Below are positions 4,086 to 50,725 of a stretch of DNA of 64,000 bases, piece after piece. The notes under the pieces are model-generated. The model was not told where the DNA came from and did not search any database. It worked only from the letters and a program-made list of their open reading frames with translations. The number at the start of each line of letters is the position of its first letter. Position 1 is the stretch's first letter. This DNA comes from Kiloniellales bacterium (GTDB taxonomy: Bacteria > Pseudomonadota > Alphaproteobacteria > Kiloniellales > JAKSDN01): contig JASJEC010000005.1 of assembly GCA_030064845.1 (NCBI GenBank), positions 61,451-125,450 on the forward strand, written 5' to 3'. A program made the position numbers and the translations under genes.

Positions 4086-4095
4086 CTCTCGCTGC

Positions 4096-6210: not shown

Positions 6211-6249
6211 GGCTGGGGGCTATCTCCCGCGCTGCTCTCGCCCGGCGCC

Positions 6250-7641: not shown

Positions 7642-7666
7642 CGAACGTCTCCAACTCAGCTCGGGT

Positions 7667-8521: not shown

Positions 8522-8564
8522 GCTTCCTGCGCCGAGTCCTTCCGACTGGCTGTCCCGCGGCCGA

Positions 8565-8921: not shown

Positions 8922-8950
8922 CTTCGGGCTCCCGTTTGGCTGCGTCCGGA

Positions 8951-9745: not shown

Positions 9746-9749
9746 CGGT

Positions 9750-10766
9750 TCAGAACACCAGCTCGTCTTCTTCGCTGCCGTCCGACAGGATGATCTCGTT
9801 GCGCGCGGCGAGGTCCTTGGCGACCTGAACCAGGTGCATTTGGGCCTCGTCGACGTCGCGCAGACGCACCGGCCCCATGGCCTGCATGTCCTCCTGCATG
9901 ATCTTCGCCGCGCGTTCCGACATGTTCGAGAAGAAGAGATCGCGCAGCGTTTCCGAGGCGCCCTTGAGCGCGATCGCGAGCTTGTCGTTCTCGGCGGCGC
10001 GCATCAGGGTCTGGACGCCGGAGGGGTCGAGCTGGCTGAGATCCTCGAAGGTGAACATCAGCGCCTTGATCTTCTCCGCCGACTCTTTGTTGCGCTCCTC
10101 CAGCGAGTTCAGGAACTTGCTCTCGGTCGCCCGGTCGAGGTTGTTGAAGATGTCCGCCATCATCTCGTGGGCGTCGCGCCTGCTGGTCCGCGCCAGGTTC
10201 GACATGAACTCCGTGCGCAGGGTGCGCTCGACGTCGTCGAGCACCTCTCTCTGCACCGCGTCCATGCGCAGCATCCGCATGATGACTTCGAGAGCGAAGG
10301 GCTCCGGCAGGTTGCCGAGGACGCGCGCGGCGTGCTCCGGCTTGATCTTGGAGAGGACCACGGAGACCGTCTGGGGGTATTCGTTCTTGAGGTAGTTCGC
10401 CAGGACCGTCTCGTTGACGTTGCCCAGCTTGTCCCACATGGTGCGGCCGGCCGGGCCGCGGATCTCCTCCATGATGGCGTTTACCTTGTCCTTCTCCATG
10501 ACCTTGAGGAGAAGGCGCTCGGTGCTCTCGTAGTTGCCGACCACCGAGCCCGTGCTGGAGATCCGCTCGGTGAACTCGATGAAGAGCCGCTCGATCAGCT
10601 GGGAGCTGACGTTGCCCAAGTTGGCCATCTGCTGGGAGAGTTCCTTGATCTCCTCGTCGTCCATCATGGTGAAGAGCCGGGCGGCGTTCTCCTCGCCGAC
10701 CGACATCACTAGGAGCGCGGCTTTCTCCGGCCCGGACAGGGAATTGAAGTCCTCTCTCACCCGCAT
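9750..10766 (-). CDS. fliG: Flagellar motor switch protein FliG
   Basis: 338 aa; [28 protein letters not shown] and [13 protein letters not shown] motifs. Confidence 0.95.
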
Positions 10767-10776
10767 CCCGTGCTCC

Positions 10777-12543
10777 TCAATGCTCTGTGTGGAGCCAGGA
10801 CCGGACGATGGCGACGCACTCCTCCGGATGCTTCTCGACGATCTCGCCGATCTTCTTGATCGAGGACATGCGCACGCGGCCCTCGACCTTGACCATGTCG
10901 ATCATGCTCTCGCCTTCGCCGTCCTCGCCGCCGCCGGCGAGCTGGGCAAGGCCTTGGCCGGCGCCGCCCAGCGCCGCGGCGGCCGCGCCGCCCGGCGGCA
11001 GGGCTGCCGCCTCGGGTCCGGTCAGGGCCGCCTGGCCGCTGAGTCGGTCGGTGATCTGGCCCGGTGCCGGCGCGCCGCCGCCGATCGTGCCGTCGAGCAG
11101 GCGGGTGATGACGGGCCGGACGATCAGCAGGAGGATCAGGACCCCGACGACGCCGAGCACGAGGACCTCGGCGATCCGCGCCAGCTCGACCGTACCGAAT
11201 CCGAACAGGCCGGTCTCGCCGTCGCTGCCCAGGGTCTCGTCCAGTTGGGCGAAGCGCAGGTTCGCCACCTCGAGTGAGTCGCCGCGGGCCTCGTCGATCC
11301 CGGCGGCCGAGCTGACCAGCGCCGCGATCTGCTCGAGCTCCGCCTCGCTGCGCGGCTGGTAGGTGGTCTCGCCGTCGGCGGTCGTGGAGACCACGCCGTT
11401 GACCAGCACCGCGACCGAGAGCTTGCGGACCAGGCCGGCTTCGCGCACCCGGTTCTTCACGGTACGGCTGATCTCGTAGTTGACCGTCTCCTCGACCCGC
11501 GCCGAGTTGCTCTTGTTGGTCGCGCCGGCGTCGTCCGCGGGGAGGCCGGCATCGGGCAAGTTGTTGCCGACCGTGACCGGCGGACGGCCCTCGCTGTCTT
11601 CGGCGGCGGAACTCTCCTCGACGGTTTGGGTCGAGCGGACAACCTGGCCGTCGGGATCGTAGATCTCGGCGTTCTCGGTGATCCGGTCGAAGTCCATTTC
11701 GGCCGAGACCTCGGCTCGGACGTTGCCCGGACCGACGGTCCGCTCGAGCAGGTCCTCGATCGTCCGCGCCATGCGGGTCTCGTAGCGGATGCGCATCTCT
11801 TCCGCGGTGCTGGCGGCGCCCTCGAGGCTGCCTTCCGGGACGCCGCGGGCGAGCAGGGTCCCCTTGTTGTCGACGATGGAGACCATGCTGGGCTCGAGCC
11901 CCGGAACCGCCGAGGCGACCAGGTTCTGGATCGCCTGCACCTGGTCGCGTTCCAGCCGGCGTCCGCCGCGCATGGTCAGGACGATCGAAGCGCTCGGGTC
12001 CTGGCGGTCACGGCTGAACAGCTCGCGGCGTGGCAGGACCAGGTGGACCCGGGCCGACCGGACCTGGTTGATCGAGCGAATGGTGCGGGCCAGCTCGCCT
12101 TCCAGCGCGCGCAGGTGGTTGATGTTCTGAACAAAGTTGGTGGTGCCCAGGCCCTCGGACCGGTCGAAGATCTCGTAGCCCATCGAGCCGCCGCTCGGCA
12201 GGCCCTCCTCGGCCATGGCGAAACGGATGCTGCCGACCTTGTCGGTCGGCACGAAGATCTGGGTGCCGTCGTTGCTCAGGCGATAGGACTGGTTGAGCTG
12301 CTCCAGGCGCGCGATGATCTGGGCCGAATCCTGGCTGCTCAGATCGGCGTAGAGCAGGGACATGTCGGGACTGGACAGGCGCGACGTCAGGAAGATGAAG
12401 AATGCCAGCGTGCCTGCGGCGACCACCGCCATGGCCGCGAGGCGCGTCGGCCCCAGGTTCTTCAAGGTTTCGATCAGTGCGTTCAACGCCGCGGCCCAGC
12501 TCTTGACGAGTTTCAGAGTGGCGCGCCGCCCGAAGGGCGCCAA
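10777..12543 (-). CDS. fliF: Flagellar MS-ring protein FliF
   Basis: 588 aa of the YscJ/FliF family ([20 protein letters not shown]..., C-terminal TM segment plus FliG-binding tail). TTG start at 12543 has an AGAGG SD; alternative TTG at 12486. Confidence 0.95.
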
Positions 12544-12731
12544 CCGCCTCTGATCATTAAATTAGTCTATTCGTCTTCAGTAAAAGCGCGGTTAAGGCGG
12601 GGAAATAATTGCCTAGCAGTTCTATTCTAATTTGTGTTGAAGCGCCCTGGAATCGCAAACCCCCGCGCCAGGGGCTGGCACGGGGGTGCTCGTCAGGGGC
12701 GTCGCACCGGCGGCGCGGTGGGGCGGCGGGC

Positions 12732-13061
12732 TCAGGAGCCGCTGTTGGGCGGGGCCTCGCCGAGGACGGTCTCGCCGTTGGGGGAGGTGCGCCGGTACTG
12801 CTGCAACCGGGTCGTGCGGAGTCCGCGCATGCCGTGACGGTCGATGAGGCGTTGCCAGGACAGGAACTCCTCGACCGAAAGGCGGTAGCGCTCGCAGGCC
12901 TCCTCCAAGGTGATCAGACCCGCGCGCACAGCGGCGACCACTTCGGCCTTGCGCCGAATGACCCACCGCTCCGTGTTCGGAGGCGGCAGATCATCGATGG
13001 ACAACGGCTTACCTGCCGGTCCGATGACTGTGTTGGGCCTACCTGGGCTCTCCGACGCCAT
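12732..13061 (-). CDS. sciP: DUF1153 / SciP-family small helix-turn-helix protein (CtrA-associated regulator type)
   Basis: 109 aa. Core RWVIRRKAEVVAAVRAGLITLEEACERYRLSVEEFLSWQRLIDRHGMRGLRTTRLQQYR matches the SciP/DUF1153 family as I recall it. Flanked by AT-rich spacers. Confidence 0.7.
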   Translation of the reverse strand: MASESPGRPNTVIGPAGKPLSIDDLPPPNTERWVIRRKAEVVAAVRAGLITLEEACERYRLSVEEFLSWQRLIDRHGMRGLRTTRLQQYRRTSPNGETVLGEAPPNSGS

Positions 13062-13138
13062 AAACTAGCCTCCAACCTGGGCTTTAGTTGTTCGGCTACA
13101 GTACTGGTGCCGTCTTTACAAATCGCTAAATCGGGGAG

Positions 13139-13153
13139 TTAAACAAGGTTTAA
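13139..13153. promoter_or_regulatory. Perfect CtrA-type box TTAA-N7-TTAA upstream of sciP-like gene
   Basis: ttaaacaaggtttaa, 78-92 bp upstream of the ATG at 13061. A TTAACCGC half-site lies at 13171-13178. Confidence 0.5.
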
Positions 13154-13256
13154 AAGTAGTAATAATTCCGTTAACCGCATTTATTCAAAATACCCACGCC
13201 GAAATCGACAGAATAGTCTTTTTCAGCGTGGGTACCTGAAAAGTAATTGATTTGTC

Positions 13257-14519
13257 TTATCGAATTACTGACGTGATTTCTTCCAGTAATTCGTCGGCCG
13301 TGGTGATCACCCGCGTATTGGCCGAGAAGGCGCGCTGGGCGACGATCAGGTTGGTAAATTCTTCGGCGAGATCGACGTTGGAGTTCTCCAGGGCCGCCGA
13401 GGCCACGACGCCGGCGCCGCCGGTGTTGGCCTGCTGCAGCAGCACGTTGCCCGAGGAGAGGGTCTCGATGAAGGCGTTGCCGTCTCGGGCCGAGAGTCCG
13501 TTCGGATTGCCGAAGCGGGCCAGCGGCAGCTGGTAGATGGCCAGGGTGCGGCCGTTGTCGAACAGCGCCGAAACGATGCCGTCCTCGTCGATGATGACGT
13601 CTGTGAATGAGCCGAACGGCAGGCCGTCCTGATCCAGGAAGGAGACGACGAAGGGGCCCGAGAACTGGGTGACGCCGTCGGTTAGCCCGACCGTGCCGAG
13701 ATTGGCCGCGATCGAGCTAGGGTTGGCCGTGGTCGCGGTCCAGGTGATGTCGATCGCCGGGAAGGTGATCACGGCGGGCGTGCCGTTGCCGTCGAAGCTG
13801 ATCGATCGGGCCGCGGCGGCCACGGTGCCGCTGGCGGCGCCGGTCGAGGACAGGGTGGGGTTCTGGACCGTGATGTCCCATTCCGGCGTGGCGGAGTCGT
13901 AGACGAAGTCGATCTGCAGGTCGTGGGCGGTGCCCAGAGAGTCGAGGATCTGCACGGTGGCGCTGTGGGTTTCGCCGTTGACGGCGGTCGCCGGCAGATT
14001 GATGCCGAGGTCGATGTTCCCGGTGGCCGTCGCGATGCCCGCCAGGTTGGCGACGTTTACGGTCTGCACGCTGGACAGCACCGTGGGGTTGGCGGGCAGG
14101 GCGCCGGAGGAGGAGAGTGGCCAGCCCTGCAGGAAATAGCCCGCGTCGTTCACCAGGTTGCCACTGGAGTCGGTGCGGAAGGAGCCGGCCCGGGTGTAGA
14201 GATACTCGTCCCCGGGCCCTGGCGCCGCGGCCTCGTTCACCACGAAGAGCCCGTTGCCCGAGATCGCGATATCCGTCGAGGATGTCGTGGTCTGGAGAAT
14301 GCCCTGGGAATCGATGGACTGGATCGGCTGAGAGCGCACGCCGCCCGGCGAGTGGCTGTTGGCCGTCGCGGGCGTCGTCACCAGCGTCGAGAAGCTGGCA
14401 TTGAGGCCCTTGTAGCCGACCGTGTTCACGTTGGCGATGTTGTCGGAAATCATGCCGATTGCCTGGCTCTGCGCCGACAATCCGGCCACGCTGGCAAAGA
14501 GTGCACCACCGATACTCAT
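13257..14519 (-). CDS. flgE: Flagellar hook protein FlgE
   Basis: N-terminus ALFASVAGLSAQSQAIGMISDNIANVNTVGYK and C-terminus NSNVDLAEEFTNLIVAQRAFSANTRVI, the conserved rod/hook termini. Confidence 0.9.
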   Translation of the reverse strand: MSIGGALFASVAGLSAQSQAIGMISDNIANVNTVGYKGLNASFSTLVTTPATANSHSPGGVRSQPIQSIDSQGILQTTTSSTDIAISGNGLFVVNEAAAPGPGDEYLYTRAGSFRTDSSGNLVNDAGYFLQGWPLSSSGALPANPTVLSSVQTVNVANLAGIATATGNIDLGINLPATAVNGETHSATVQILDSLGTAHDLQIDFVYDSATPEWDITVQNPTLSSTGAASGTVAAAARSISFDGNGTPAVITFPAIDITWTATTANPSSIAANLGTVGLTDGVTQFSGPFVVSFLDQDGLPFGSFTDVIIDEDGIVSALFDNGRTLAIYQLPLARFGNPNGLSARDGNAFIETLSSGNVLLQQANTGGAGVVASAALENSNVDLAEEFTNLIVAQRAFSANTRVITTADELLEEITSVIR

Positions 14520-14616
14520 CTCTTTTCTCCCTTAGCGACTAGGCGATGGACCGCGATCCATCGGTTAGGGCTTCCTGCCCCGGAAAAATCTTGGCCCGCA
14601 CGGGGGGGGCGGCAGA

Positions 14617-15285
14617 CTAGGCGCCGCCGCCCGCCGGCGCGCGGACCGACAGGATCTGGCTCAGCGAGACCTGGAGGCTGCCGACCGAGAGGATGACCTC
14701 GCCGTTGACCAGCTCGATGCCGCTCACCTTGCCGACCGAACCCTGTGTCAGCGCCACGGGGTCGCCCTGGCCGTCGAGGGCCTGCACGCTGAAGCTGTAG
14801 CTGCCGTCGGGCAGCTGGTTGCCCTGGTCATCCTTGCCGTCCCAGACGATCTCCTGGGGCCCGGTGCCCGAAGGACCCTTGAGGCTCGCCACCGGTTGGC
14901 CCAGCGAGTCCAGGACAAGGACCGTGACCGCGCTGGCCGCCCCGGATAGGTCGTAGGCGAGGGTCGCGCCGCCGTCGACGAGGTCGAGGCCGGTGCCCTC
15001 GACCGTGACCGTCTTGCCGATGTAGTCGAGGGCGCCGGTCAGCTGGTTGCCGCCCTGGGCGGCGATCAACTGGTCGAGCTTGGTGTTCGTGTTGATCGCC
15101 TGCTCCACGTTGGCGAACTGCACCAGCTGGTCCGTGAACTGATTGGTGTCGAGCGGTTCGAGCGGGTCCTGGTTCTGCAGCTGCGTGGTCAGCAGCGTCA
15201 GGAAGTTGTCGAAGGTCTCCGTCAGATTGGTGGTGCTGCTTCCCGGCGGCTGCAGCTCGAGAAGGGGAACGCCGTTGATTTCCAT
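14617..15285 (-). CDS. flgD: Flagellar hook capping/assembly protein FlgD
   Basis: FLTLLTTQLQNQDPLEPLDTNQFTDQLVQFANVEQ motif followed by a FlgD Ig-like C-terminal half. Confidence 0.9.
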   Translation of the reverse strand: MEINGVPLLELQPPGSSTTNLTETFDNFLTLLTTQLQNQDPLEPLDTNQFTDQLVQFANVEQAINTNTKLDQLIAAQGGNQLTGALDYIGKTVTVEGTGLDLVDGGATLAYDLSGAASAVTVLVLDSLGQPVASLKGPSGTGPQEIVWDGKDDQGNQLPDGSYSFSVQALDGQGDPVALTQGSVGKVSGIELVNGEVILSVGSLQVSLSQILSVRAPAGGGA

Positions 15286-15316
15286 GAACTCAGCTCCTTT
15301 CTTCCGGAGGCCCGCG

Positions 15317-16726
15317 TCAGACCGTCAAGTCGATCAGGCCGCGATGGCTGCCCGTCCCGGGCTTGGCGCCAGGGTCGTCATCCAGGTCTGCCGTTCCCTC
15401 GGCGCCGTTGCGGGACGCCCCGTCGACGTCGCGGGACTGGTGTTTGTCATGAGCCGACTGGTCGCGCAGATCGAAGGTGAAGCTGCCCGCGTCGGTCTTG
15501 AGGCCGGCCTCTTGGAGCGCTCTTTCGAGCACGCGCGCATCCCGCTGCAGAAGATCGAGAGCCTCGCCACGCTCGGCCAGGATCGCCGCGCGCAGGCGGC
15601 CGTCCTCGGCGAACTCAAGCTGGACGTCGATCCGTCCCAGTTCCGCCGGGTGCAGGCGCAGGGAGATCCGGTCCTGGCCGGCCTGCACCGCCTTTTGGAT
15701 ACGGACCGCCAGGATTTCGCTCTGCGGGCTCGCGCCCGCGGTGCGGCCGGGCGTGCTCTCCGGCGCCGCGCCGGTGCTAGCCGCGTCGCCCGTCGGCAAG
15801 GCGCCCTGGAGCCCCGGGGTGCCGAGCGGCGCCGGAGCGGGCTCCGCTGCCGGAGCGCTGATCGGAGTGGTGGTTGGCGGCGGCGCCGTCGCGCCGGTCG
15901 CCGCCTTGGCGGTCTCCGGCGTCTGGGCCGGGTTGCCGGCCCGGCTCTCCGCCACCGTTACGCTTGGGCGAACCTGCTCGTCAGCCGCTAATGACGGCTG
16001 CGGTCCGGGTCCGCTCCGGGCGGATCGCTCGCGGGAATCCTCGGCGAAGGACTGGTTTCCGGACGGGTCTGCCGGTGCTGCGGCACCGCTCGCGGACGCG
16101 GCGGCCCTCGCCGTCTCGCCGGCGTTCTGCGCCGCCTTGATCGTCGCCTCGAGGCCCTGCGCAGCCTCGCCCGACGGCGCCGGGCCGGCCGGGCGGGCGG
16201 TTTCGACGCCATCCGCCGGCAGCGCCTGCGCGCCCTCGCCAGCGATCCCAGGCGCCGAAACGCCAGGCGCCGGCCCGGCCGCGTCGGTCGCCAGGGGCTT
16301 GAAGATGTCGAGCGTCTCGGACGCCGGCGGCGCTTCCGGCCTGCTCTCGACCATGACGCCGGGGTTGCGCGGACCGGTCGGTGTCAGGCCTTCGGTCTGG
16401 AGCGACCCGATCCCTGGCGGCAGGGGCGGCGGTGCGGCGGGGGGCGGCGCGGCATCCACTGCCGGCAGGACGGCCGCCTCGGCCTCGCCCGGCGTGACGC
16501 CAACGGCGTTGAGCGCAGGCCTGTCGACGGCCCCGGCGAGCAATGCTGCGAAGGCGCCCCGGACGCCCTGGACGTCTTGGACGCCCTGAACGCCCCCGAC
16601 GCCCTGGCCGAGGGGGGCGGCCTGGCCCTCGCCGGGCCGGCCCGTTCCGCCTTGTCCTATGATCCCGAATACATCCATCGCCGGACTGGTGTCGTTCTCC
16701 GCAGTGTTCCGGGTATCCGGAAGCAA
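15317..16726 (-). CDS. fliK: Flagellar hook-length control protein FliK
   Basis: Pro/Ala-rich with a C-terminal domain RISLRLHPAELGRIDVQLEFAEDGRLRAAILAERGEALDLLQRDARVLERALQEAGL. The track start is a TTG inside the predicted promoter; ATG at 16678 is more likely. Confidence 0.8.
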   Translation of the reverse strand: MLPDTRNTAENDTSPAMDVFGIIGQGGTGRPGEGQAAPLGQGVGGVQGVQDVQGVRGAFAALLAGAVDRPALNAVGVTPGEAEAAVLPAVDAAPPPAAPPPLPPGIGSLQTEGLTPTGPRNPGVMVESRPEAPPASETLDIFKPLATDAAGPAPGVSAPGIAGEGAQALPADGVETARPAGPAPSGEAAQGLEATIKAAQNAGETARAAASASGAAAPADPSGNQSFAEDSRERSARSGPGPQPSLAADEQVRPSVTVAESRAGNPAQTPETAKAATGATAPPPTTTPISAPAAEPAPAPLGTPGLQGALPTGDAASTGAAPESTPGRTAGASPQSEILAVRIQKAVQAGQDRISLRLHPAELGRIDVQLEFAEDGRLRAAILAERGEALDLLQRDARVLERALQEAGLKTDAGSFTFDLRDQSAHDKHQSRDVDGASRNGAEGTADLDDDPGAKPGTGSHRGLIDLTV

Positions 16727-16737
16727 GTCGCGGGCCA
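16722..16737 (-). promoter_or_regulatory. Sigma-54 (-24/-12) promoter candidate for fliK-flgD-flgE
   Basis: The minus strand reads TGGCCCG-cgac-TTGCT against the consensus TGGCACG-N4-TTGCW (GG and GC correctly spaced). It lies 45-60 nt upstream of ATG 16678, and the FlbD activator is encoded in the window. Confidence 0.55.
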
Positions 16738-16843
16738 GTCCGCCGACGAGGGCTTAGCCTCTGATTTTCATGGGAGAATTTCTGGCCGTCCCGGCGGCGA
16801 CGCCGGACTGCGGGGCAGGCCGGCCGCGCCAGGTCGGTACAAG

Positions 16844-16859
16844 CTGCCGGGTCCGGCAG
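16844..16859. promoter_or_regulatory. Perfect inverted repeat CTGCCGG-gt-CCGGCAG (candidate enhancer/UAS or terminator stem)
   Basis: Located 107-122 bp upstream of the -24 element and 14 nt after the stop of the HprK-like gene; function inferred only. Confidence 0.3.
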
Positions 16860-16872
16860 TTCCTGCCGCCGG

Positions 16873-18036
16873 TCAGGCGACGGAGCGGGGCCCCGCCGAG
16901 ACGGCACGCCCGACGCCGCCCTGGCGGTCCGGGTCCGGGGTGCCGTCGAGCAGGTCGCGGATCGCCCGGGGCGGCGTTTCCGCCACATAGGATTCGGGCA
17001 TCAGCACCCGCCAGGTCGCACAGCGGTGCAGCGCGTCGCCCAGGATTGCCGTGCAGGCCCGGCGCCAGGAGTCGATGACTTCGGCGCGCCGGCCGGTCTC
17101 CGCCCGGTGGGCGCGATAGGCGGCAAGCAGCTCCTCGATCTGCTGCTCCGCCAGGGCGGTCAGGCTCTCGGCCATGGCGGCCCTGTCCGCCTCCCGGGTC
17201 TCGGTGGCGCTCTTGTTCCAGGCGCGGCGCTCGAGCAGCAGCAGCTGATCGACCGGACGGCCGCTGCGGACCGGCTGCTGGCCGAGCAGGGTCTCGGGCC
17301 TCGCTTCGAGGTGAACGCGCGTCTCCAGGTCCCGCAAGGTCGCCGGGTCGAGGCCCGCCTCGCCGCCGCGCAGGTGCGCGAGGCCACCGACCAGGGACGC
17401 CGCCGGTTCCGGCAGGTCCTGGGCCAGGTCGGGGAAAGCCTCGATGGTCCGGTAGGAGAGGTGGAGACGCTTGCCGAGGCCCTGGACCAAGCCGCCGCGG
17501 TCGAGCGCGGCCCAGTCGTCGCCGATGAAGCGCGCGCCCTCGGCCAGCAGGCCCAACAGCAGGTTGGTCTTGCCCGACCGGCGCGAGCCCGGGACCAAAA
17601 TCGTGGCGCCCCGGCGCTCGGCGGCGGCGGCGGGCAAGAGAGCCTTGCCCCGGCAAAGCAGGCGGAGCTGAATGAGCTGCAGCAGCAGGCGATCAAACGC
17701 CGGAGGGTCGAAGTCGGGGTCGCAGGTGGCGCGCCAGCACTCGCCTGAGAGCGAGGCGAAGTCCAGGCGCAGGCAGCGGTCCTGGCCGTCGTGGAGGAAG
17801 ACGCCGCGTCGGTCGCTGGCCACCGAGGCTCCGTGGCGGTCGCTCGACTCCGGGTCGGCGCGATCCTCGGTCAGGGCGATCCGGATGTCGGCGTGGCCGT
17901 CGCGCGACGGGGCCACCGCCAAGGGGGCGTACTCCGCCGCGAGATAGTCGACGATCGCGCTCGGCGGTCCGTCCAGCACGACGACCGTCTCGTCGAGGAA
18001 GCTCACCTGCCAGGTCTTCGCCGCGTCTCTCGCCAT
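16873..18036 (-). CDS. HPr-kinase-C-terminal-like P-loop protein (putative Ser kinase), flagellar-operon associated
   Basis: 387 aa. Motif LPAAAAERRGATILVPGSRRSGKTNLLLGLLAEGARFIGDDWAAL (Walker A GxxxxGKT plus a downstream xDD). GGAGA SD present; starts 19 nt after the flaF stop. Confidence 0.6.
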   Translation of the reverse strand: MARDAAKTWQVSFLDETVVVLDGPPSAIVDYLAAEYAPLAVAPSRDGHADIRIALTEDRADPESSDRHGASVASDRRGVFLHDGQDRCLRLDFASLSGECWRATCDPDFDPPAFDRLLLQLIQLRLLCRGKALLPAAAAERRGATILVPGSRRSGKTNLLLGLLAEGARFIGDDWAALDRGGLVQGLGKRLHLSYRTIEAFPDLAQDLPEPAASLVGGLAHLRGGEAGLDPATLRDLETRVHLEARPETLLGQQPVRSGRPVDQLLLLERRAWNKSATETREADRAAMAESLTALAEQQIEELLAAYRAHRAETGRRAEVIDSWRRACTAILGDALHRCATWRVLMPESYVAETPPRAIRDLLDGTPDPDRQGGVGRAVSAGPRSVA

Positions 18037-18055
18037 GGACTTCTCCCCGTTTCGC

Positions 18056-18529
18056 TCAGATCGTGATCCCGCCGCCCGACGAGCCGGTCGGATCGCTGGT
18101 GCCGGACTTTTCGCCGGCGCCCTCGGCGCTCGCCGGCTCGTCCTGGGCGCCCTGCTCGCCTTCCGGCGTGGTCAGCAGGCCGGCGGCGATCTGCCGATTC
18201 ACGTTGATCAGCACGTCGAGCAGGTGCGGCTTGGCCTCGGCCAGGACGGCGACCGTGCGCCTGTCGACGAAGTTGCAGAGGTTCAGCATGTTGACCCGGA
18301 TCTCCTGGGGGACCGGGCACTCCGGCGCGCTCAACTCGGCCTGAAAGATGGTCCAGAGGCGCCAGTTGAGGCGGGCCGCCTCGCGCAGGCCCTTGCGGTC
18401 GTCCGGGTTCTGCTGGGCCTCGGACAGGCGCCGCGCGGCTTCCAGCAGGGCGCGCCCCTCGGTCTCCCGCGGCGCGCCGCCGGCCTTGTGAAAACGGTTA
18501 TAGCTGTGCAGTGCAGTGTCATTGGACAT
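18056..18529 (-). CDS. flaF: Flagellin synthesis regulator FlaF
   Basis: 157 aa; REAARLNWRLWTIFQAEL...NLCNFVDRRT pattern of FlaF; overlaps flbT by 11 nt. Confidence 0.85.
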   Translation of the reverse strand: MSNDTALHSYNRFHKAGGAPRETEGRALLEAARRLSEAQQNPDDRKGLREAARLNWRLWTIFQAELSAPECPVPQEIRVNMLNLCNFVDRRTVAVLAEAKPHLLDVLINVNRQIAAGLLTTPEGEQGAQDEPASAEGAGEKSGTSDPTGSSGGGITI

Positions 18530-18908
18530 GTGACAGGACCTCGGACTCGTGGTCCAAGAGGCGGCTGCATTGCTTCAGGGCGCTGTAGAGCTGGTGGTCC
18601 TCGACCAGCGCCAGGATCTCGGCGCCGATCGTCTGGCCGCTGGGCGCCGCTTCCAGGTAGTCCTTGAGGAGGCGGCGGAAGTCGCCGATGTGGGCGGTCG
18701 CCTTCTCTGGAAAGAGGTAGGCGCACTGCAGGGCCAGGTACACGCGCGCCGCCGGTGTCGTGGCGCTTTCCTGGGTCAGAATGTCCTTCTGGCGCAGGAT
18801 GTGGGCCTGGTTCTCGAACAGCAGGCTGGTTCCCTCGCCGTCGTTGCGGATCACCGCACCGTTGACGATCAGCTTCTCACCTTTGCCGACGGTCAGTTTC
18901 AGGGGCAT
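18519..18908 (-). CDS. flbT: Flagellin translation repressor FlbT
   Basis: 129 aa; MPLKLTVGKGEKLIVNGAVIRNDGEGTSLLFENQAHILRQKDIL is the typical FlbT N-terminus. Confidence 0.85.
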   Translation of the reverse strand: MPLKLTVGKGEKLIVNGAVIRNDGEGTSLLFENQAHILRQKDILTQESATTPAARVYLALQCAYLFPEKATAHIGDFRRLLKDYLEAAPSGQTIGAEILALVEDHQLYSALKQCSRLLDHESEVLSHVQ

Positions 18909-24283: not shown

Positions 24284-24436
24284 GTTCCGCTCGGTCCCCG
24301 CTGCGCCCAGATTTCTGCGCGGCGACGAGGGCGGGGTCGCCGTCCGGATGGCTGCAGGAATGACGGCGCTCATGGGCATGGCCTGGCGATTGACACTGGC
24401 CACGTCTATGCCGAGGAGAACTGGCTCCAGGATGTT

Positions 24437-24520
24437 CCGCTCTACATAATAGGTTTAGAGCAGATTCACCGGGTTGATGGACCGCCCGTGGCGATTCCAT
24501 CAAACCTGGATCTGCTCTAG
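24437..24520. repeat. Twin-hairpin element locus 1: truncated B unit end + 11-bp spacer + full A unit
   Basis: A unit 24456-24520: tagagcagattcaccgggttgatggaccgcccgtggcgattccatcaaacctggatctgctctag. It is preceded by spacer cataataggtt and by gatgttccgctcta (B 3' end only). Confidence 0.8.
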
Positions 24521-25311
24521 GGCTTTCGCGCTCTGAGGTGCGTCGGTCTGAGTTCGCCCCGATCGAGGACGACGATCATCTTTTTCCACACATCGACCTG
24601 TCGATCCAAGAACTGCTTGCCGACGGTGGATTCGAGATTCGCGTGCAAGGCACCGGTGAGGTTCTCCAGCTCACGGCGCGCCTCTTGCCTGTACCAGGCG
24701 TTGCGGTCGGTCACCTCGATGTCGTCGAAACCCGCCGCTTCCAACGCCGCCTGGTAGACGGCCGCGGAGGCGAGGCCGAAGTCCAGACCTTCGGCGGAGA
24801 CGTAGGCCTGCATGTCGGGCGAAGGCGCACCCGAGTAGCCGGCCAGCCAATCGCTCGCAGCAAACAAACCTCCGGGTTTCAGGCACCGGAAGATGTCCTC
24901 AGCAAGGGCATGCTTGTCGGCGATATGAATGATCGAGTCCTTGCTGAACACCATATCGAGGCTGGCGTCCTCGACGGGGAGTGGCCCGGGCTCGACACGG
25001 CGGAACCGGATCACGTCCGACAAACCGGATCGCGCCGCCAGCTTATCGCAGGCCTCGATCAAGTTGCTCTCGATGTCGATACCGATGATTCCCGCAACAC
25101 CGTAGCGGCTGGCGATATGTACCGTCGCGCCACCGATGCCGCAGCCGATATCGAGCACGGATAGAGCGGTCAGATCCAGGCCGTCGAGAATGCGGTCCAC
25201 TTCATCGGTGCCACCCGGCGACAGGAAACCCGCACCCCAAACCGCTTCCAGCACGGCGATCAGGTCGTCGTCATACTCCAGCTCCGGTTCGGTCTCATCG
25301 GGTGTAGTCAT
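24517..25311 (-). CDS. Class I SAM-dependent methyltransferase
   Basis: Motif I VLDIGCGIGG, then CLKPGGLF. ATG at 25311. The TAG stop (24517-24519) lies inside the repeat terminus. More A/T-ending codons than the flagellar genes. Confidence 0.8.
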   Translation of the reverse strand: MTTPDETEPELEYDDDLIAVLEAVWGAGFLSPGGTDEVDRILDGLDLTALSVLDIGCGIGGATVHIASRYGVAGIIGIDIESNLIEACDKLAARSGLSDVIRFRRVEPGPLPVEDASLDMVFSKDSIIHIADKHALAEDIFRCLKPGGLFAASDWLAGYSGAPSPDMQAYVSAEGLDFGLASAAVYQAALEAAGFDDIEVTDRNAWYRQEARRELENLTGALHANLESTVGKQFLDRQVDVWKKMIVVLDRGELRPTHLRARKP

Positions 25312-25447
25312 GAAGGCTCTCCATCTTCTTGCTTCCTGCGCTAACCTCGCCGTGCCCGATAGCGCTGCTGTGTCCGCTCGTGCCCCCGTCTCCTGACCCA
25401 CGAGCCGCTGACGGCGGCGCTCCGCCGGCACGATCCGGCGGCCACGC

Positions 25448-28454: not shown

Positions 28455-28634
28455 GGAACCGTTTCGCGCTTCCTCAGGGCGTTAGAGGACGCTGACCGGG
28501 TTCGACGGAGAGCTCTTGCGACCCCTTCGAACCCGGGCCCGCCCGGGGCGCCGCGGCGCTATCGAAGAGACTTGCCGACAGAGCCCGGCGCGCCGCCGTC
28601 CCACGGCTTACCCTCAAGGCAGGCCGTCCGACGC

Positions 28635-34827: not shown

Positions 34828-34960
34828 TGTGCTGAAAAAGTGCTCAGCCGGCACCATCACCCTTCGACAAGCTCAGGGTGAGGGGTGAATTTTTTCAAGC
34901 ACTGACCCTCATCCGCGCGCAGCGCCGGGCTTCGCCCCTTGTCGAAGGATGACCGTGATC
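34828..34960. repeat. Palindromic intergenic repeat, family C, copy 2 of 2 (boundaries approximate)
   Basis: Shares both arms with 447-578. The right arm carries a ~24-nt insertion. Lies between convergent MFS and GT2 genes. Confidence 0.7.
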
Positions 34961-35018
34961 AAAGGCCCCAGGCCTTCCAAAAAGCCTGCCGGACCGGTCG
35001 ACGGAAGAGAAAAGCGGG

Positions 35019-35839: not shown

Positions 35840-36529
35840 TCAGGGCCTGCAGGCGCCCTTGGAGCCCTGGCCGCAGGTCATGCCGTCGGTCCACACCGTG
35901 CCCCAGAGGTCGGCGCCGGCGAGGTCCGCGCCGGTCAGGTCGGCGCCCATCAGCACCGCCCCGGTCAGGTCGGCCTCGCGCAGGTCCGCGCCGCGCAGGT
36001 CGCTGCGCACCAGCTTGGCGGCGATCAGCCGGGCCCGGCTGAGATCGACCTGGCGGAGATCGGCCCCGTTCAGGACCGTTTCGACCAGGTTCGCGCCGTC
36101 GAGGCGGGCGCCTGACAGGGTCGCGCCGCTTAGGTCGGCGCGGTTCAGATAGGCGCCGCGGCTCAGGTCCGCCCCGGTCAGATTGGCCAGGCGCAGGCTG
36201 ACCCGGCTGAGGTCGGCGCCCTGCAGGTCGCAGCGGGTCAGGTCGGCGCCGTGGAAGTTCACCTTGCGCAGCACGGCGCGGGCCAGGGTCGCGTCGGCCA
36301 GGCGCCCTCCGCTCAGGTCGGTCTCCAGCAGGTAGGCGCCGGTCAGGTCGGCACCGGCGAGGTTGGCGCCCCTGAGGTCGCTGCGCGCAAGGTTCACGCC
36401 GGCCTTGTCGCATCCGCTCCAGTCGACCCCCGGTCCCGGCGGGTCGCTGCAGCCGGCGGTCGCCGGCGGCGGGAGCGCCGCGGCGGTCAGGGCCGCGGTC
36501 AGGAAGAGCGCGAGGTGTCTCGGTTTCAT
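35840..36529 (-). CDS. Secreted pentapeptide-repeat protein
   Basis: Signal peptide MKPRHLALFLTAALTAAALPPPATAGC (possible weak lipobox), then about 35 A(D/N)LxG-type pentapeptide repeats, and a Cys-containing C-terminus. Confidence 0.8.
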   Translation of the reverse strand: MKPRHLALFLTAALTAAALPPPATAGCSDPPGPGVDWSGCDKAGVNLARSDLRGANLAGADLTGAYLLETDLSGGRLADATLARAVLRKVNFHGADLTRCDLQGADLSRVSLRLANLTGADLSRGAYLNRADLSGATLSGARLDGANLVETVLNGADLRQVDLSRARLIAAKLVRSDLRGADLREADLTGAVLMGADLTGADLAGADLWGTVWTDGMTCGQGSKGACRP

Positions 36530-36625
36530 GGCTGCCTCCCTTGGGCGGGGGCCGGGGCGCCACTGCGTCCCGACATGGCCGCCGGGATCCTTTAATTTTC
36601 AGATTGTACCCTATTTATAACTGTT

Positions 36626-44010: not shown

Positions 44011-44145
44011 TTAGCCGTTCGACCACTTGACCTGGAACTCGATCTCCTCTTCCCCGTTGCCCAGCTCGTGCTCGACGGTGAATTCGGCGCGGACGGGGAG
44101 GTAGATCCGCTCTAGAATGTGCCGTTCGAAGGGGAGAGCGGTCAT
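44011..44145 (-). CDS. Unlisted 44-codon ORF (hypothetical)
   Basis: MTALPFERHILERIYLPVRAEFTVEHELGNGEEEIEFQVKWSNG; 38 of 44 codons end in G/C; no SD. Its ATG (44145-44143) interlocks with the ATG of the divergent methyltransferase (44144). Confidence 0.3.
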   Translation of the reverse strand: MTALPFERHILERIYLPVRAEFTVEHELGNGEEEIEFQVKWSNG

Positions 44146-44977
44146 GGCGAAGGAAGCGATTGTCGCCGCGCACTACGAGGCCGAAGGCCTGGTCGCGGCG
44201 ATCCGCGAGGGTCTGGAGCGCAGCGGCAAAGCGCCGAAAGCGGCGACCATCGAGGATCTCGCGCCGGTCGACGAGTTCCATATCGGCGGGCGCCAGGCTT
44301 CCGAGGACTTCCTCGGCCAGCTCGGCCTGAGCGCGGAAGATCACGTGCTCGACGTGGGGTCGGGCCTCGGCGGTCCGGCGCGCTACACCGCCCAGCGCTG
44401 GGGGGCGCGGGTGACCGGGATCGACCTGACGGCGGCCTTCGTCGAGACCGGTCGGGTCCTGACCGGCTGGGTCGGCCTCGACGAGCGGGTCGCGCTGCAC
44501 CAGGGCAGCGCGCTGACGACGGGCTTCGAGGACGCGGCTTTCGACGCGGCCTACATGCTGCATGTCGGCATGAACATCGCCGACAAGGAGGCGCTCTTCG
44601 CCGAGGTCGCGCGGGTCACCCGGCCGGGCGGGCTGTTCGGCGTCTACGACGTCATGGCCACGAGTGACGAGCCGCTCAGCTACCCCGTGCCCTGGGCCGC
44701 GACGCCGGAGACCAGCGCCCTGGCCGGTCCCGAGACCTACCGGCAGGCCCTGGCCGGGGCCGGCTTCGCCATCGTCGCGGAACGGGAGCGCCGCGGCTTC
44801 GCGCTCGACTTCTTCGCCACCTTGAGAAAGAAGACCGAGGCCGCCGGCGGACCGCCGCCGCTCGGCCTCCATCTGGTCATGGGCGAGAGCGCGCCGGTCA
44901 AGATCCGCAACATGGTCGAGAACATAACGGCCGGCCGCATCACGCCGGTCGAGATGATCGCGCGGAAAACCGGCTAG
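44144..44977 (+). CDS. Class I SAM-dependent methyltransferase
   Basis: Motif I VLDVGSGLGGPA, then VTRPGGLF. GGGGAG SD before ATG 44144. The TAG stop is part of the repeat terminus. Confidence 0.8.
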   Translation: MAKEAIVAAHYEAEGLVAAIREGLERSGKAPKAATIEDLAPVDEFHIGGRQASEDFLGQLGLSAEDHVLDVGSGLGGPARYTAQRWGARVTGIDLTAAFVETGRVLTGWVGLDERVALHQGSALTTGFEDAAFDAAYMLHVGMNIADKEALFAEVARVTRPGGLFGVYDVMATSDEPLSYPVPWAATPETSALAGPETYRQALAGAGFAIVAERERRGFALDFFATLRKKTEAAGGPPPLGLHLVMGESAPVKIRNMVENITAGRITPVEMIARKTG

Positions 44978-45116
44978 AGCAGATCCGGGTTTGACTGAAT
45001 CGCCGGAGGCGATCCATCAAACCCGGTGAATCTGCTCTAAACCTATGTCGTAGAGCGGATTCACATGTTTAGTTAGCAACCACGAAGTGGTTCCATCTAA
45101 ACATGATCCGCTCTAG
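44974..45116. repeat. Twin-hairpin element locus 2 (A unit 44974-45039, 11-bp spacer, B unit 45051-45116; inverted relative to locus 3)
   Basis: ctagagcagatccgggtttgactgaatcgccggaggcgatccatcaaacccggtgaatctgctcta / aacctatgtcg / tagagcggattcacatgtttagttagcaaccacgaagtggttccatctaaacatgatccgctctag. Confidence 0.85.
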
Positions 45117-45266: not shown

Positions 45267-45941
45267 ATGGACTCCAGCGCGAAGGACCTCAACAGCCACT
45301 ACAGGCCCCGCTCGGCGAGCGACCGCATCGCCTACGGTTTCGTCAAGCTGCTCCGCTTCTTCGCCGATCTCTTCTTCGCCAAGCGCTATGGCCACCGGGC
45401 CGTCGTCCTGGAGACGGTCGCGGCGGTTCCCGGCATGGTCGGCGGACTGCTCCAGCACCTGAGCTGCCTCAGGCACATCCGCGAGGACCGGGGCTGGATC
45501 CGCACCCTGCTGGACGAGGCCGAGAACGAGCGCATGCACCTCATGACCTTCGTCGAGATCGCCAAGCCGAGCCTCTTCGAGCGCGTCCTGGTCATGCTGA
45601 CCCAGGCGGTGTTCTACAATCTCTACTTCTTCCTCTACCTCTTCTCGCCGAAGACCGCGCACCGCATCGTCGGTTACTTCGAGGAGGAGGCCGTGATCAG
45701 CTACACCCAGTACCTCGAGGAGATCGACGCCGGCCGCCACGAGAACGTCGCGGCGCCGCAGATCGCGATCGACTATTGGGGGCTGGCGCGCGACGCCAGG
45801 CTGCGCGACGTGGTCATCGCAGTGCGGGCAGACGAGGCCGGGCACCGCGACGCCAACCACGGCTTCGCCGACACGCTGGCGGGGCGCGGCGGCGCCGAGG
45901 TGGTGCCGATCGAGGCCGGCCGCGACAAGGCGGCCGCTTAA
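45267..45941 (+). CDS. aox: Alternative (cyanide-insensitive) ubiquinol oxidase AOX
   Basis: Di-iron motifs [27 protein letters not shown] and [12 protein letters not shown]. Confidence 0.9.
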
Positions 45942-45997
45942 CAGGTTAGGGCGCGTTCGCCGGGTCGATCCGAGCGGCCCGGCGACGCCGCGCTGCT

Positions 45998-48055: not shown

Positions 48056-48466
48056 ATGTCGAGCGAACCCCTTACCCGAGGCGCCCACCACATCGGCCTC
48101 ACCGTGCCCGATCTGCCTGCGACCCGCGGGTTCTTCATCGAGACCCTCGGGTTCTCCCAGGTCGGCGAAGTCGCGGATTACCCCGCTGTCTTTCTGACCG
48201 ACGGCACGACGATGGTCACCCTGTGGCAGGCGGAGAATCCGCAGACGGCGGTGCCCTTTGACCGCAAGAACGTGATCGGTCTGCACCATTTCGCCCTAAA
48301 AGTCGGGGACGGCGGCGCGCTCGACGCGCTGCACGGAAAGCTGGCGGATACCGCGGACGTCACCGTCGAGTTCGCGCCGGAGTCCCTGGGCGGTGGGGCG
48401 ACCCGCCACATGATGTGCACGATCCCCGGCGGCATCCGCATGGAGTTCATCGCCCCCGCCGGCTGA
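48056..48466 (+). CDS. VOC/glyoxalase-family protein
   Basis: 136 aa; AHHIGLTVPDL ... GLHHFALKV ... paired beta-alpha-beta-beta-beta pattern. Confidence 0.75.
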   Translation: MSSEPLTRGAHHIGLTVPDLPATRGFFIETLGFSQVGEVADYPAVFLTDGTTMVTLWQAENPQTAVPFDRKNVIGLHHFALKVGDGGALDALHGKLADTADVTVEFAPESLGGGATRHMMCTIPGGIRMEFIAPAG

Positions 48467-48495
48467 GGCGGGATGACTTGGAACTGGAGAGCGTC

Positions 48496-50586
48496 ATGGC
48501 GAGCGACGGAGCATCCCCCTTCCACCCCGGAGAGCGGCAGGTCCAGGAACGGCTCGGAGTCCGTGACAAGATCGAGGACTTCGCCCGGCGCGTGGTGCGC
48601 GACCACATGCCCGACCAGCACCGCGACTTCTATGGCGAGCTGCCCTTCCTAATGCTCGGCACGGTCGACCGCCAGGGCAGGCCCTGGGCCTCGCTGGTCG
48701 CCGGCGGGCCGGGCTTCGTCTCGACGCCCGACGCGCGGACCCTGGCCGTTGCCGCGGCGCCCCTGTCCGGCGATCCGCTGCAGGAGACGCTGCAGCCCGG
48801 CGCCGACGTCGGAGTTCTCGGCATCCAGCTCGAGACGCGGCGCAGGAACCGGATCACCGGCAAGATCGCCTCGGTCGGGCCGGAGGGCTTCGAGATCGCC
48901 GTCGGTCAGGCCTTCGGGAACTGCCCGCAGTACATCCAGACCCGCGCGGTCTCGATGCGGCCAGATCGCGCGAGCGGCGCGGCGCCACCGCCTCCCGTTC
49001 GGTCGGACCGCTTCGACGAGCGCACCCGCGCCCTGATCGAAGCGGCCGATACGCTGTTCATCGCCACGGCTTACGCGGAAGACCCTGACACGCCGACCCA
49101 GGGGGCCGATGTCTCGCACCGCGGCGGCAAGCCGGGCTTCGTGCGCATCGAGGACGACCGCGGCTTCGAGTTTCCCGATTTCTCGGGCAACAACCATTTC
49201 AACACGGTCGGCAACATCCTGCTCAACCCGAAGGCCGGCTTCCTTTTCCTCGATTTCGAGACCGGCGACTACGTCACCATGAGCGGTTCGGCGGAGATCG
49301 TCTGGGAAGGCGACGAGGTCAAGGCCTTCACCGGCGCCGAGCGCCTGATCCGCTTCCGCGCCGAGACCGTGATCCGGGTCGAGGGCGGCCTGCCGCTCCG
49401 CTTCGACTTCGACAGCTATTCGCCCATGCTGGCCCATACGGGAAGTTGGGCGCGGGCCGCCGAGGCCATCGCGGCCGAGCGGGAGCGCAACCAGTACCTC
49501 GCCTATGACGTTGTCGACATCAGGCAGGAGAGCCAGGCGATCAAGTCCTTCACCCTGCGCCGGGCCGACGGCAAGGCCCCGGCCGGCTACGAGCCGGGCC
49601 AGTACCTGCCGATCCGCGTCCAGCTTCCGGGCACGGACTCGCCCGCGCTGCGCACCTACACCGTGTCCCAGGCGCCCGACGGCGAGACCTATCGCCTCTC
49701 GGTGAAGCGCGAGGGGGGCGACGCGCTGGTCTCCCAGTTTCTGCACGACCGGGTCGAGACCGGCTTCCGTCTCGAAGCCATGGCGCCGCGCGGCCACTTC
49801 GTGCTGGACCGAGCGAGCGAACGCCCCGTGGTGCTGATTTCCGGCGGGGTGGGGATAACGCCGATGATGGCCATGGTGGAATCGATCGTGCAGGAGGCGG
49901 CGCGCACCCGGAACCGACGCCCGACCTACTTCGTACACGGCGCGCGGAACGGCGGGCTCCTGGCTTTCGGCGCGCGTCTTCGGATGCTCGCCGAGGAGAA
50001 CGATTTCCTCACGACCCACATCCGTTTCAGCGACCCCGGCCCCGGCGACCGCCTCGGCGAGAGCCACGACAGCGAGGGACGGGTCGACGTCGGCCTGCTG
50101 AAATCGCTGCTGCCGCTGGACGACTACGACTTCTACCTCTGCGGCCCGGCGGCCTTCATGCAGGCGCTCTACGACGGCCTGGTCGGCCTGGGGATTCGGG
50201 ATGAGCGGATCCACTACGAGTCCTTCGGCCCTGCCACGGTCTTGAAGCACGACCCCGAGCCGGCGCGGCCGCCGGCCACGGGGAAGACGGTCGACGGACC
50301 CGTGGCCGTGCGTTTCGCCGAGTCCGAGTCCGAGGCCGAATGGTCGCCGGAAAAGGGAACGCTGCTGGAACTGGCCGAGCAGGCGGGGCTGGCACCGGCC
50401 TTCTCCTGCCGGAGCGGAGTCTGCGGCACCTGCGCGACCCGCATGCTCTGCGGCGCGGTCGACTACCTCGAGGAACCGAGCGGGCCGAGAGCCGACGACG
50501 AGGTGCTGATCTGCTGCGCGACGCCGCGGCCCGGCGCCGGCGCCGCCTCCTGCGGCGAGGACCAGGGAGTCGTGCTCGCTCTCTAG
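48496..50586 (+). CDS. Three-domain oxidoreductase: PNPOx-like FMN domain + FNR-like FAD/NAD(P) domain + 2Fe-2S ferredoxin
   Basis: N-terminus FHPGERQVQERLG... and GGKPGFVRI. RTYTVS and VLISGGVGITPMMAM. C-terminus CRSGVCGTCATRMLCG. ATG 48496. The TAG stop is part of the repeat terminus. Confidence 0.8.
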   Translation: MASDGASPFHPGERQVQERLGVRDKIEDFARRVVRDHMPDQHRDFYGELPFLMLGTVDRQGRPWASLVAGGPGFVSTPDARTLAVAAAPLSGDPLQETLQPGADVGVLGIQLETRRRNRITGKIASVGPEGFEIAVGQAFGNCPQYIQTRAVSMRPDRASGAAPPPPVRSDRFDERTRALIEAADTLFIATAYAEDPDTPTQGADVSHRGGKPGFVRIEDDRGFEFPDFSGNNHFNTVGNILLNPKAGFLFLDFETGDYVTMSGSAEIVWEGDEVKAFTGAERLIRFRAETVIRVEGGLPLRFDFDSYSPMLAHTGSWARAAEAIAAERERNQYLAYDVVDIRQESQAIKSFTLRRADGKAPAGYEPGQYLPIRVQLPGTDSPALRTYTVSQAPDGETYRLSVKREGGDALVSQFLHDRVETGFRLEAMAPRGHFVLDRASERPVVLISGGVGITPMMAMVESIVQEAARTRNRRPTYFVHGARNGGLLAFGARLRMLAEENDFLTTHIRFSDPGPGDRLGESHDSEGRVDVGLLKSLLPLDDYDFYLCGPAAFMQALYDGLVGLGIRDERIHYESFGPATVLKHDPEPARPPATGKTVDGPVAVRFAESESEAEWSPEKGTLLELAEQAGLAPAFSCRSGVCGTCATRMLCGAVDYLEEPSGPRADDEVLICCATPRPGAGAASCGEDQGVVLAL

Positions 50587-50725
50587 AGCGGATCATGTCT
50601 TGACGGAAATGCTTCGCGATTTCGGCAAGAACATGTGAATCCGCTCGATATCAATTTGTTAGAGCAGATTCACCGGATTTGTCGGGTCGCCTTCGGCGAT
50701 TCCGTCAAACTTGGATCTGCTCTAG
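50583..50725. repeat. Twin-hairpin element locus 3 (B unit 50583-50648, 11-bp spacer, A unit 50660-50725)
   Basis: ctagagcggatcatgtcttgacggaaatgcttcgcgatttcggcaagaacatgtgaatccgctcga / tatcaatttgt / tagagcagattcaccggatttgtcgggtcgccttcggcgattccgtcaaacttggatctgctctag. Confidence 0.85.

Follow-up and report, generated by a model that had tools for sequence, protein, structure and literature searches.

What is the structured, non-coding element of about 143 bp that occupies positions 44974-45116 in a contig of a Kiloniellales bacterium, and how did it come to lie there? The surrounding DNA is a 64,000-nt stretch of contig JASJEC010000005.1 (assembly GCA_030064845.1), called the window in the following. 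It has a G+C content of 68.9% and is 99.97% identical to a contig of the Kiloniellales metagenome-assembled genome (MAG) GCA_029979995.1. An earlier note, made from the sequence of the window, had described at this place two hairpin units, B and A, separated by an 11-bp spacer, and had listed two further loci of the same composition. We found that this twin-hairpin element is real and non-random, and that it is part of a large conserved family of repeats, most likely miniature parasitic mobile elements of a kind known from bacteria.

Five hairpin units of approximately 65 nt are present in the window, four of them in two complete doublets and one in a truncated copy. A search of the whole 64 kb with a covariance model of the unit returned exactly these five at 58-74 bits, and the next-best match reached 15 bits. 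Doublet 1 (44974-45116) consists of unit A in reverse orientation (44974..45039, minus strand; a 65-66-nt hairpin with 69.8 bits and a DNA fold of -25.6 kcal/mol), an AT-rich spacer of 11 nt (45040..45050, aacctatgtcg) and unit B (45051..45116, plus strand, 74.3 bits), the inner arm of which, TAGAGCGGATTCAC, carries a 3-nt bulge and a GANTC, and the outer end of which reads GATCCGCTCTAG. In doublet 2 (50583-50725) the orientation of the composite is reversed, with unit B on the minus strand (50583..50648, 57.9 bits; several mismatches in the stem), an 11-nt spacer (50649..50659, tatcaatttgt) and unit A on the plus strand (50660..50725, 65.2 bits). The two doublets form a 145-nt inverted match with 78% identity. 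Both are matched in the repeat comparison by the truncated copy at 24436-24520, which has kept the full unit A (24456..24520, plus strand, 69.3 bits) and the spacer (11 nt, up to 24455), and from unit B only nine nt of the inner foot, TCCGCTCTA (24436-24444). Thus, the three loci read as first described, including the spacer length of 11 nt in each of them, and the truncated copy is genuine; only its start had to be moved from 24437 to 24436. The extra TCA reported for one arm is likewise present in all five units, with GATTCAC opposite GATC, resulting in a 3-nt bulge. The terminus CTAGAGCRGATY, when up to one mismatch is allowed, occurs 12 times in the window compared to 0.83 expected occurrences, and none of 100 shuffled sequences reached this number. 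The same search revealed a solo outer terminus GATCCGCTCTAG at 44104..44115 (plus strand), which was not contained in the earlier note.

To describe the family, the pattern TAGAGCRGATTCAC-N25-55-GATCYGCTCTA was scanned against one genome per species. It matched at least 120 loci, so that further copies, on which the first interpretation depended, exist in large number in the Kiloniellales lineage and in distant relatives. Among the matches listed, all hosts are Alphaproteobacteria: Pelagibius, Denitrobaculum and other Kiloniellales, Thalassobaculum, Aquibaculum, the Acetobacteraceae Siccirubricoccus, Roseomonas and Paracraurococcus, and MAGs labelled as Azospirillaceae, Reyranellaceae and Hyphomonadaceae. 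Isolates are represented in this set by Pelagibius litoralis, Denitrobaculum, Thalassobaculum litoreum, Siccirubricoccus, Paracraurococcus and Aquibaculum; that many of its copies lie at contig ends is in keeping with a multi-copy repeat. An identical stretch of 25 terminal bases is found in Kiloniellales, Thalassobaculales, Acetobacteraceae, Azospirillaceae and one Hyphomonadaceae MAG.

The architecture of the window copies is that of the family. Most units are 64 nt long, in addition to which a class of 51-54 nt exists, and the complete elements measure about 116-143 bp, the window copies having 143 bp and the short variants 116 bp. For 111 of the 119 ascertained units an inverted partner hairpin was found at a distance of 8-15 nt, showing that the doublet is the norm. 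The spacer (10-13 nt, with a mode of 11) has a G+C content of 32%, and the outer ends of these small (<300 bp), non-coding elements, CTAGAGCRGATC and GATCYGCTCTAG, form an inverted repeat. The feet of the two units differ in 30 of 31 distinct doublets. Tandem arrays were also detected, and the units that abut each other (eleven) have exactly one TA in common (GCTC-TA-GAGC). In two such arrays, which resemble bacterial interspersed mosaic elements (BIMEs), the unit types alternate (five units at L057 4389-4724 and three at L045 3566-3764). The loops are frequently of the stable GAAG or TTCG types. At L083 3860-3937 a 78-nt unit carries an insertion of 14 nt in the apical stem, which indicates that the apex tolerates changes in length.

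Whether the fold itself is conserved was analyzed at several levels. The RNA folds of the doublets have energies of -74.3 and -68.5 kcal/mol (z -10.7 and -7.6 versus shuffles), and the DNA folds of single units range from -17 to -26 kcal/mol (z -5.5 to -8.7 versus shuffles). In an alignment of 97 distinct units, 94.3% of the cells are paired, compared to 79.4% in shuffled alignments and 25-39% with the partners slid, and there are 352 two-sided stem changes where 104 are expected. Foot pair 7-60, the sole foot position left free by the search pattern, is AU in 49 units, GC in 46 and GU in two, without any mismatch. The partner units, which stand outside the selection by the pattern, contain compensatory feet such as TAGATC/GATCTA, TAGACC/GGTCTA and GCAAAT/ATTTGC. 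In line with what had been proposed from three loci, the stem differences are compensatory, and the strong covariation argues for selection on the fold, which may act on RNA, on single-stranded DNA or on a cruciform alike. According to a rough calling of the register, at least 63 of 104 partner units have the 3-nt bulge on the spacer-side arm and three have it on the outer arm.

In one respect the initial description is not supported. It regarded the 143 bp as a nested palindrome, which could also fold as one long hairpin. The units of a doublet nearly always differ in the foot, however, and each arm fits its own unit: foot pairing within units has 19 mismatches in 620 positions, while pairing across units has 83. 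One long hairpin or a four-way junction, which for some strands is the energy minimum, was rejected as the conserved structure on the basis of these numbers. The conserved fold is two separate hairpins, since foot pairing is far better within than across the units.

The 3-nt bulge usually forms a GANTC (GATTC or GAATC), which is a methylation site of CcrM. Outside the ascertainment by the pattern, partner units contain 0.82 GANTC per unit compared to 0.22 after shuffling, mostly at the bulge. About half of the units of 64 nt have a second GANTC, located at a bulge of 1 nt (GGCGAtTCC), and in 51-nt units the motif is often found in the terminal loop.

The ends of the elements and their position relative to genes are similarly uniform. 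The outer tetramer is CTAG at 137 of 185 ends, and CTAA (26), CTAC (8) and CTAT (6) account for further ends; in 88% of all ends TA is followed by a purine. CTAG is rare in the window, with 34 occurrences versus 184 expected from the base composition, and six of the 34 are element ends. When gene context was called with a simple gene caller relying on G+C at the third codon position (GC3), 48 elements were assigned to convergent, 42 to tandem and 13 to divergent contexts. At 35 of the 138 gene 3' ends facing elements the stop codon is the TAG of the element, and the next commonest distance occurs four times; the 35 cases are an undercount, because some partner units were missed. In the window, CTAG of the element is the source of the stop codon of the adjoining gene at three of five outer ends. 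The outer CTAG of unit A in doublet 1 (44974-44977) gives the TAG (44975-44977) of a methyltransferase gene (44144..44977), and that of unit B in doublet 2 the TAG (50584-50586) of a PNPOx/ferredoxin-reductase fusion gene (48415..50586), whose product keeps its C-terminus ...VVLxL in 120 homologues. The outer CTA of the truncated copy (24517-24519) corresponds to the TAG on the minus strand of a second methyltransferase gene (24517..25431). According to Pfam, from which these assignments were also taken, the flanking genes have ordinary housekeeping or accessory functions; they further include genes for a GNAT acetyltransferase, a DegT aminotransferase and, next to doublet 1, an alternative oxidase (AOX; 45267..45941).

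The suggestion that the element is mobile or recombination-active was supported by comparing the window with the related loci L121 and L124-L129, in which orthologous sites show presence, absence and replacement. Elements were gained, lost or replaced at four sites. At the 24517 site the element is absent from L124-L126 (84-91% amino-acid identity): L125 has TAA where the window has TAG (CCC-TA-A versus CCC-TA-GAGC), and L124 reads through at CAA. The native flank at this site is TAAGACGGTGCGGAATCTGG in L124 and L125, also written GGTGCGGAATCTGG. Based on this flank in the relatives, it seems that unit B of the truncated copy was lost by a deletion between GCGGA direct repeats. At the 44974 site the orthologous doublet is present in L128 and L129, and L127 (93%) carries TAA at the same position, with only a 60-nt, possibly decayed remnant. 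Between the AOX gene and Npun_R2479 an element is found in L121 and L128, while the window has an element-free stretch of 56 nt there; the C-terminus of the gene is kept, and the stop codon is TGA without and TAG with the element. Finally, L121 (88% nucleotide identity) contains an element at the same stop codon as the window copy at 50583. This element is closer to the other copy of the window (unit B 91%, spacer 73%) than to the orthologous one (unit B 72%, spacer 45%). For the insertion at 50583 no clean empty site was detected, the sole close relative being filled and the next one being 71% identical with a different synteny.

TA is present at the junctions that lack an intact element, namely CCC-TA-A (L125), CGGC-TA-A (L127) and GTGC-TA-GAAT (L127-L129). 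Upstream of the methyltransferase gene 44144..44977 the relatives read GTGC-TA-GAAT or GTGC-TA-GACT, and the window reads CCGCTC-TA-GAAT, which would fit a right-hand junction at a native CTAG. The solo terminus at 44104-44115 is thus probably what remains of an otherwise lost element inserted at this CTAG. A copy is more similar to the other copies of its genome than to its orthologues. Between L121 and L128, 600 of 600 coding bases in the flanks agree, but 8 of the 142 positions of the elements do not; paralogous conversion or chimeric assembly of the repeat could be the cause.

How can these observations be explained? We lean, by a little, towards the view that the element belongs to a family of non-autonomous mobile repeats which is widespread in Alphaproteobacteria and inserts at TA. 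It would be mobilised in trans by a transposase, presumably of the IS630/Tc1-like or the IS5/IS427-like class of insertion sequence (IS) enzymes, and would insert at TA in a YTAR or CTAG context, duplicating the TA. In a genome with 69% G+C the available TA sites would largely be stop codons (TAA or TAG) and the rare CTAGs. The first base of the element, G, completes a new TAG with the preceding TA. Insertion at a stop codon of the type TAA or TAG would then leave the encoded protein as it was and be tolerated, and the accumulation at gene 3' ends would result from the neutrality of such insertions. Active copies would have to keep the hairpins, the conserved foot of 10 bp and the asymmetric bulge of 3 nt, and methylation might gate the process. 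Insertion at TA with duplication agrees with the sequences of the ends, the purine following TA, the TA shared by neighbours in arrays and the comparisons of three junctions. Elements of the IS630 family insert at TA and prefer CTAG (PMC2170065), and IS711 duplicates TA within YTAR (PMC2266754), so that by analogy IS630/Tc1 and IS711 may serve as a precedent for insertion at TA with duplication.

Several results weigh against this explanation. According to Pfam, transposase, integrase and Y1 enzyme are not found among the genes of the window, and neither the window nor about 1 Mb of element-bearing loci contains an autonomous element or a transposase with matching ends. In the element loci no gene family recurs beside the elements, and in the same 1 Mb no two units flank a long insert. 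Three variants of the element were compared by BLAST with 72,556 plasmids without a match, and a pattern scan of viral contigs gave none either; the absence of copies from the plasmids and viral contigs searched would be unusual for IS-driven elements. Two of the empty-site comparisons have a TGA stop codon without any TA, and among the relatives compared there is no filled/empty pair in which both junctions can be cleanly aligned. Further, the orthologous doublets of the window and L128 are 92.3% identical, as compared to 73.3% in the adjacent intergenic DNA and 89.5-94.4% in coding DNA, with changes at 3 of 11 spacer positions versus 8 of 132 elsewhere. This slow change may indicate that the copy is constrained where it stands, or that gene conversion took place. 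Last but not least, transposases that act on terminal inverted repeats need no hairpin in each half of their substrate, and such a class alone leaves the strong covariation unexplained.

Among the candidates considered as mobiliser, the genes of IS5-like and IS110 type close to the L125 site were rejected, since their ends are unrelated to those of the twin-hairpin element. They belong to an IS-rich patch at L125 3515-5130, downstream of the element-free methyltransferase gene, which comprises a DUF772/IS5-like fragment and an IS110 transposase gene and is bounded by a perfect 13-nt inverted repeat, TGTTGAAAAAGTC. An IS630 element of a B. anthropi plasmid was rejected for the same reason, and the unit model did not match in the first 50 kb of a B. 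anthropi plasmid.

The hairpin and the asymmetric bulge in each half of the element point to a step in which structure is read, either in mobilisation or in tolerance, and because of this step explanations based on repetitive extragenic palindromic (REP) sequences or on a host function have to be weighed. In E. coli, BIMEs are composed of alternating Y and Z REPs, and the inverted doublets of two unit types and the alternating arrays described here mirror this arrangement. The units could accordingly be long equivalents of REPs, which are read as single-stranded DNA hairpins and copied by a vertically inherited, single-copy HUH enzyme similar to a REP-associated tyrosine transposase (RAYT), or by another structure-specific enzyme, with the doublet as the replicating entity. 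Covarying hairpins with a conserved asymmetric bulge are expected for hairpin-recognising enzymes, the apparent restriction of the copies to chromosomes and their greater similarity within a genome would find an explanation, and a foot conserved across orders suits long vertical persistence. With the REP doublets (REPINs) and BIMEs of Gammaproteobacteria, the twin hairpins share the inverted pairing of imperfect palindromes across a short spacer, the chromosomal and extragenic location at 3' ends and the evolution as a population within each genome. The earlier note is supported in seeing a REP-, REPIN- or MITE-like architecture (MITE, miniature inverted-repeat transposable element), but the RAYT or the IS with matching ends that would complete the parallel was not found: tblastn with an approximate E. 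coli RayT query against about 1 Mb of DNA carrying the elements gave no hit better than E 0.1. RAYTs are reported to be rare in Alphaproteobacteria (PMC5581495). By the definition in PMC3733652, REPs are imperfect palindromes of 20-40 nt with a GTAG or CGTC head; the present units (51-65 nt) are two to three times longer and have the head TAGAGC instead. In contrast to REPINs, they end in TA or CTAG and fold separately instead of with each other, and the exact sharing of one TA fits target duplication better. We therefore consider copying by a RAYT-like enzyme unlikely. A bolder proposal is that the twin hairpins are the substrate of a structure-specific mobilisation system conserved across alphaproteobacterial orders, whose enzyme would read the 10-bp foot and the bulge, and in which, through the GANTC in the bulge, copying would depend on methylation by CcrM and hence on replication-fork passage. 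Regenerated stop codons, and perhaps a role as 3'-end module, would then allow the elements to persist. To this proposal we give a low probability; if true, it would supply the missing mechanism for repeats of the CcrM-associated type discussed below.

Alternatively, the element could be a host-functional module, either a protector or terminator at the 3' end of RNA or a DNA regulatory site depending on CcrM and GANTC, which is kept by selection at each locus and for which mobility is secondary. The location at gene 3' ends with depletion between divergent genes, the excess of GANTC at unpaired positions, the stable loops and the slow change of the non-spacer positions in the doublet shared with L128 are consistent with such a role. 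Yet the U-tract, a promoter consensus and an Rfam family are missing, close relatives manage with no element at these sites, decay or truncation affects several copies, and the position bias is explained equally well by the availability of TA at stop codons. A function of this kind as the primary cause is in our opinion rather improbable. Terminator-like sites (a G+C-rich hairpin followed by a run of T) were not detected in the elements, in which the hairpins are followed by G+C-rich sequence, and a binding site for the integration host factor (IHF) in the spacer was dismissed, as ATCAA occurs in some spacers only and few of these fit the full consensus. The attC sites of integrons, too, have a conserved foot, extrahelical bases that make them asymmetric and a variable apical stem, and act as folded single strands. 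Since the units share these features and directly follow stop codons, they could be recombinase sites bracketing gene cassettes, and in relatives two co-oriented doublets enclose the AOX gene (L121 152-292; L128 2987-3128 and L128 2004-2145). However, the element sequences lack an R''/R' core (RYYYAAC/GTTRRRY), the window lacks an integrase, the units form inverted pairs and not co-oriented cassette arrays, and L127 has the same gene order without intact elements, which makes this possibility very remote.

With non-autonomous repeats inserting at TA as the preferred explanation, the question remains to which described family the twin hairpins are related. At the gathering threshold Rfam gave no match, and at E up to 10 only chance matches to microRNAs; a full-text literature search with the terminal motif found only unrelated primers. 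We found no published account of the family in Kiloniellales and the allied orders sampled, or of stop-codon/TA targeting, twin-hairpin covariation or a GANTC carried by a bulge. By description, the closest family is probably that of the CcrM-associated intergenic repeats (CIR) of Caulobacter and Brucella (Chen & Shapiro 2003). As summarised in PMC2229807, CIR are elements of about 110 bp with two inverted-repeat arms and a linker, 5'-TA-3' termini, a conserved exposed GANTC and an unexplained mechanism of mobility. On this description, both families are alphaproteobacterial and intergenic, have two arms joined by a linker and a terminal TA, and expose GANTC (here in a bulge, a 1-nt bulge or the terminal loop), and the short variants of 116 bp are close to CIR in length; a 116-bp doublet of the Hyphomonadaceae MAG with GANTC in the loop matches the description closely. 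The twin hairpins differ from it in that the main GANTC is located in a 3-nt bulge 10 bp from the foot and not in the terminal loop, the 51-54-nt variants excepted, and in the 143 bp of the window copies. Membership in CIR is a lead, not a result.

Correia/NEMIS elements of Neisseria and RUP of S. pneumoniae are, like the twin hairpins, non-coding, TA-flanked sequences of 100-160 bp with stable folds and gene-adjacent insertion, and RUP has been connected with a TA-targeting IS630 element. In contrast to the twin hairpins, they fold end to end as one stem-loop, and the host phyla differ. The Correia terminal repeat TATAGTGGATTAAC agrees with TAGAGCGGATTCAC at 11 of 14 positions, a curiosity noted post hoc and not a test. 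Membership in Correia/NEMIS was rejected, as the similarity to the 26-bp Correia terminal repeat does not go beyond these 11 positions and the units pair within themselves and not end to end.

The family is unusually well conserved, and it combines features that usually occur apart, namely TA/CTAG ends as in IS630-type MITEs, hairpin pairs as in REPINs and CcrM sites as in CIR. Small structured repeats of this sort break metagenome assemblies. They also generate stop codons or shift them, give rise to rearrangements and can change the ends of mRNAs. Should the link to CIR prove correct, the covariance model and the target-site pattern would provide a handle on a class of repeats whose mobility has been unexplained since 2003.

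Some further features of the window deserve mention. A possible decayed A-type unit, TTAGAGGACGCTGACCGGGTTCGA...TCGAACCCGG, is located directly downstream of a Na+/H+ antiporter gene (28463..28536, plus strand); it belongs to repeat family D5 at 65% and reaches 15.2 bits (E 0.016) with the unit model, so that its membership is weak. The left quarter of the window is element-free and contains a flagellar cluster (3099-18574) with FlhA, FliG, FliF, FlgE, FlgD, FliK, FlaF, MotA and a sigma-54 activator. A separate repeat family, unrelated to the twin hairpins, is represented by two intergenic copies (451-549 and 34839-34989), which contain CACCATCACCCTTCGACA..GGGTGAGGG and CCCTCATCC..GTCGAAGGATGA and form very long hairpins with -81 and -72 kcal/mol as RNA. 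The direct repeats with a 15-nt period at 35840-36598, reported by the repeat finder as family D1, are coding sequence of a pentapeptide-repeat protein. In the element-free spacer between the AOX gene and Npun_R2479 (window 45942-45997, L127 2380-2426) the sequence GGGTCGATCCGAGCGGCCCGG is conserved, and its core GATCCGAGCGG resembles two fused element termini, which could be a footprint or a coincidence.

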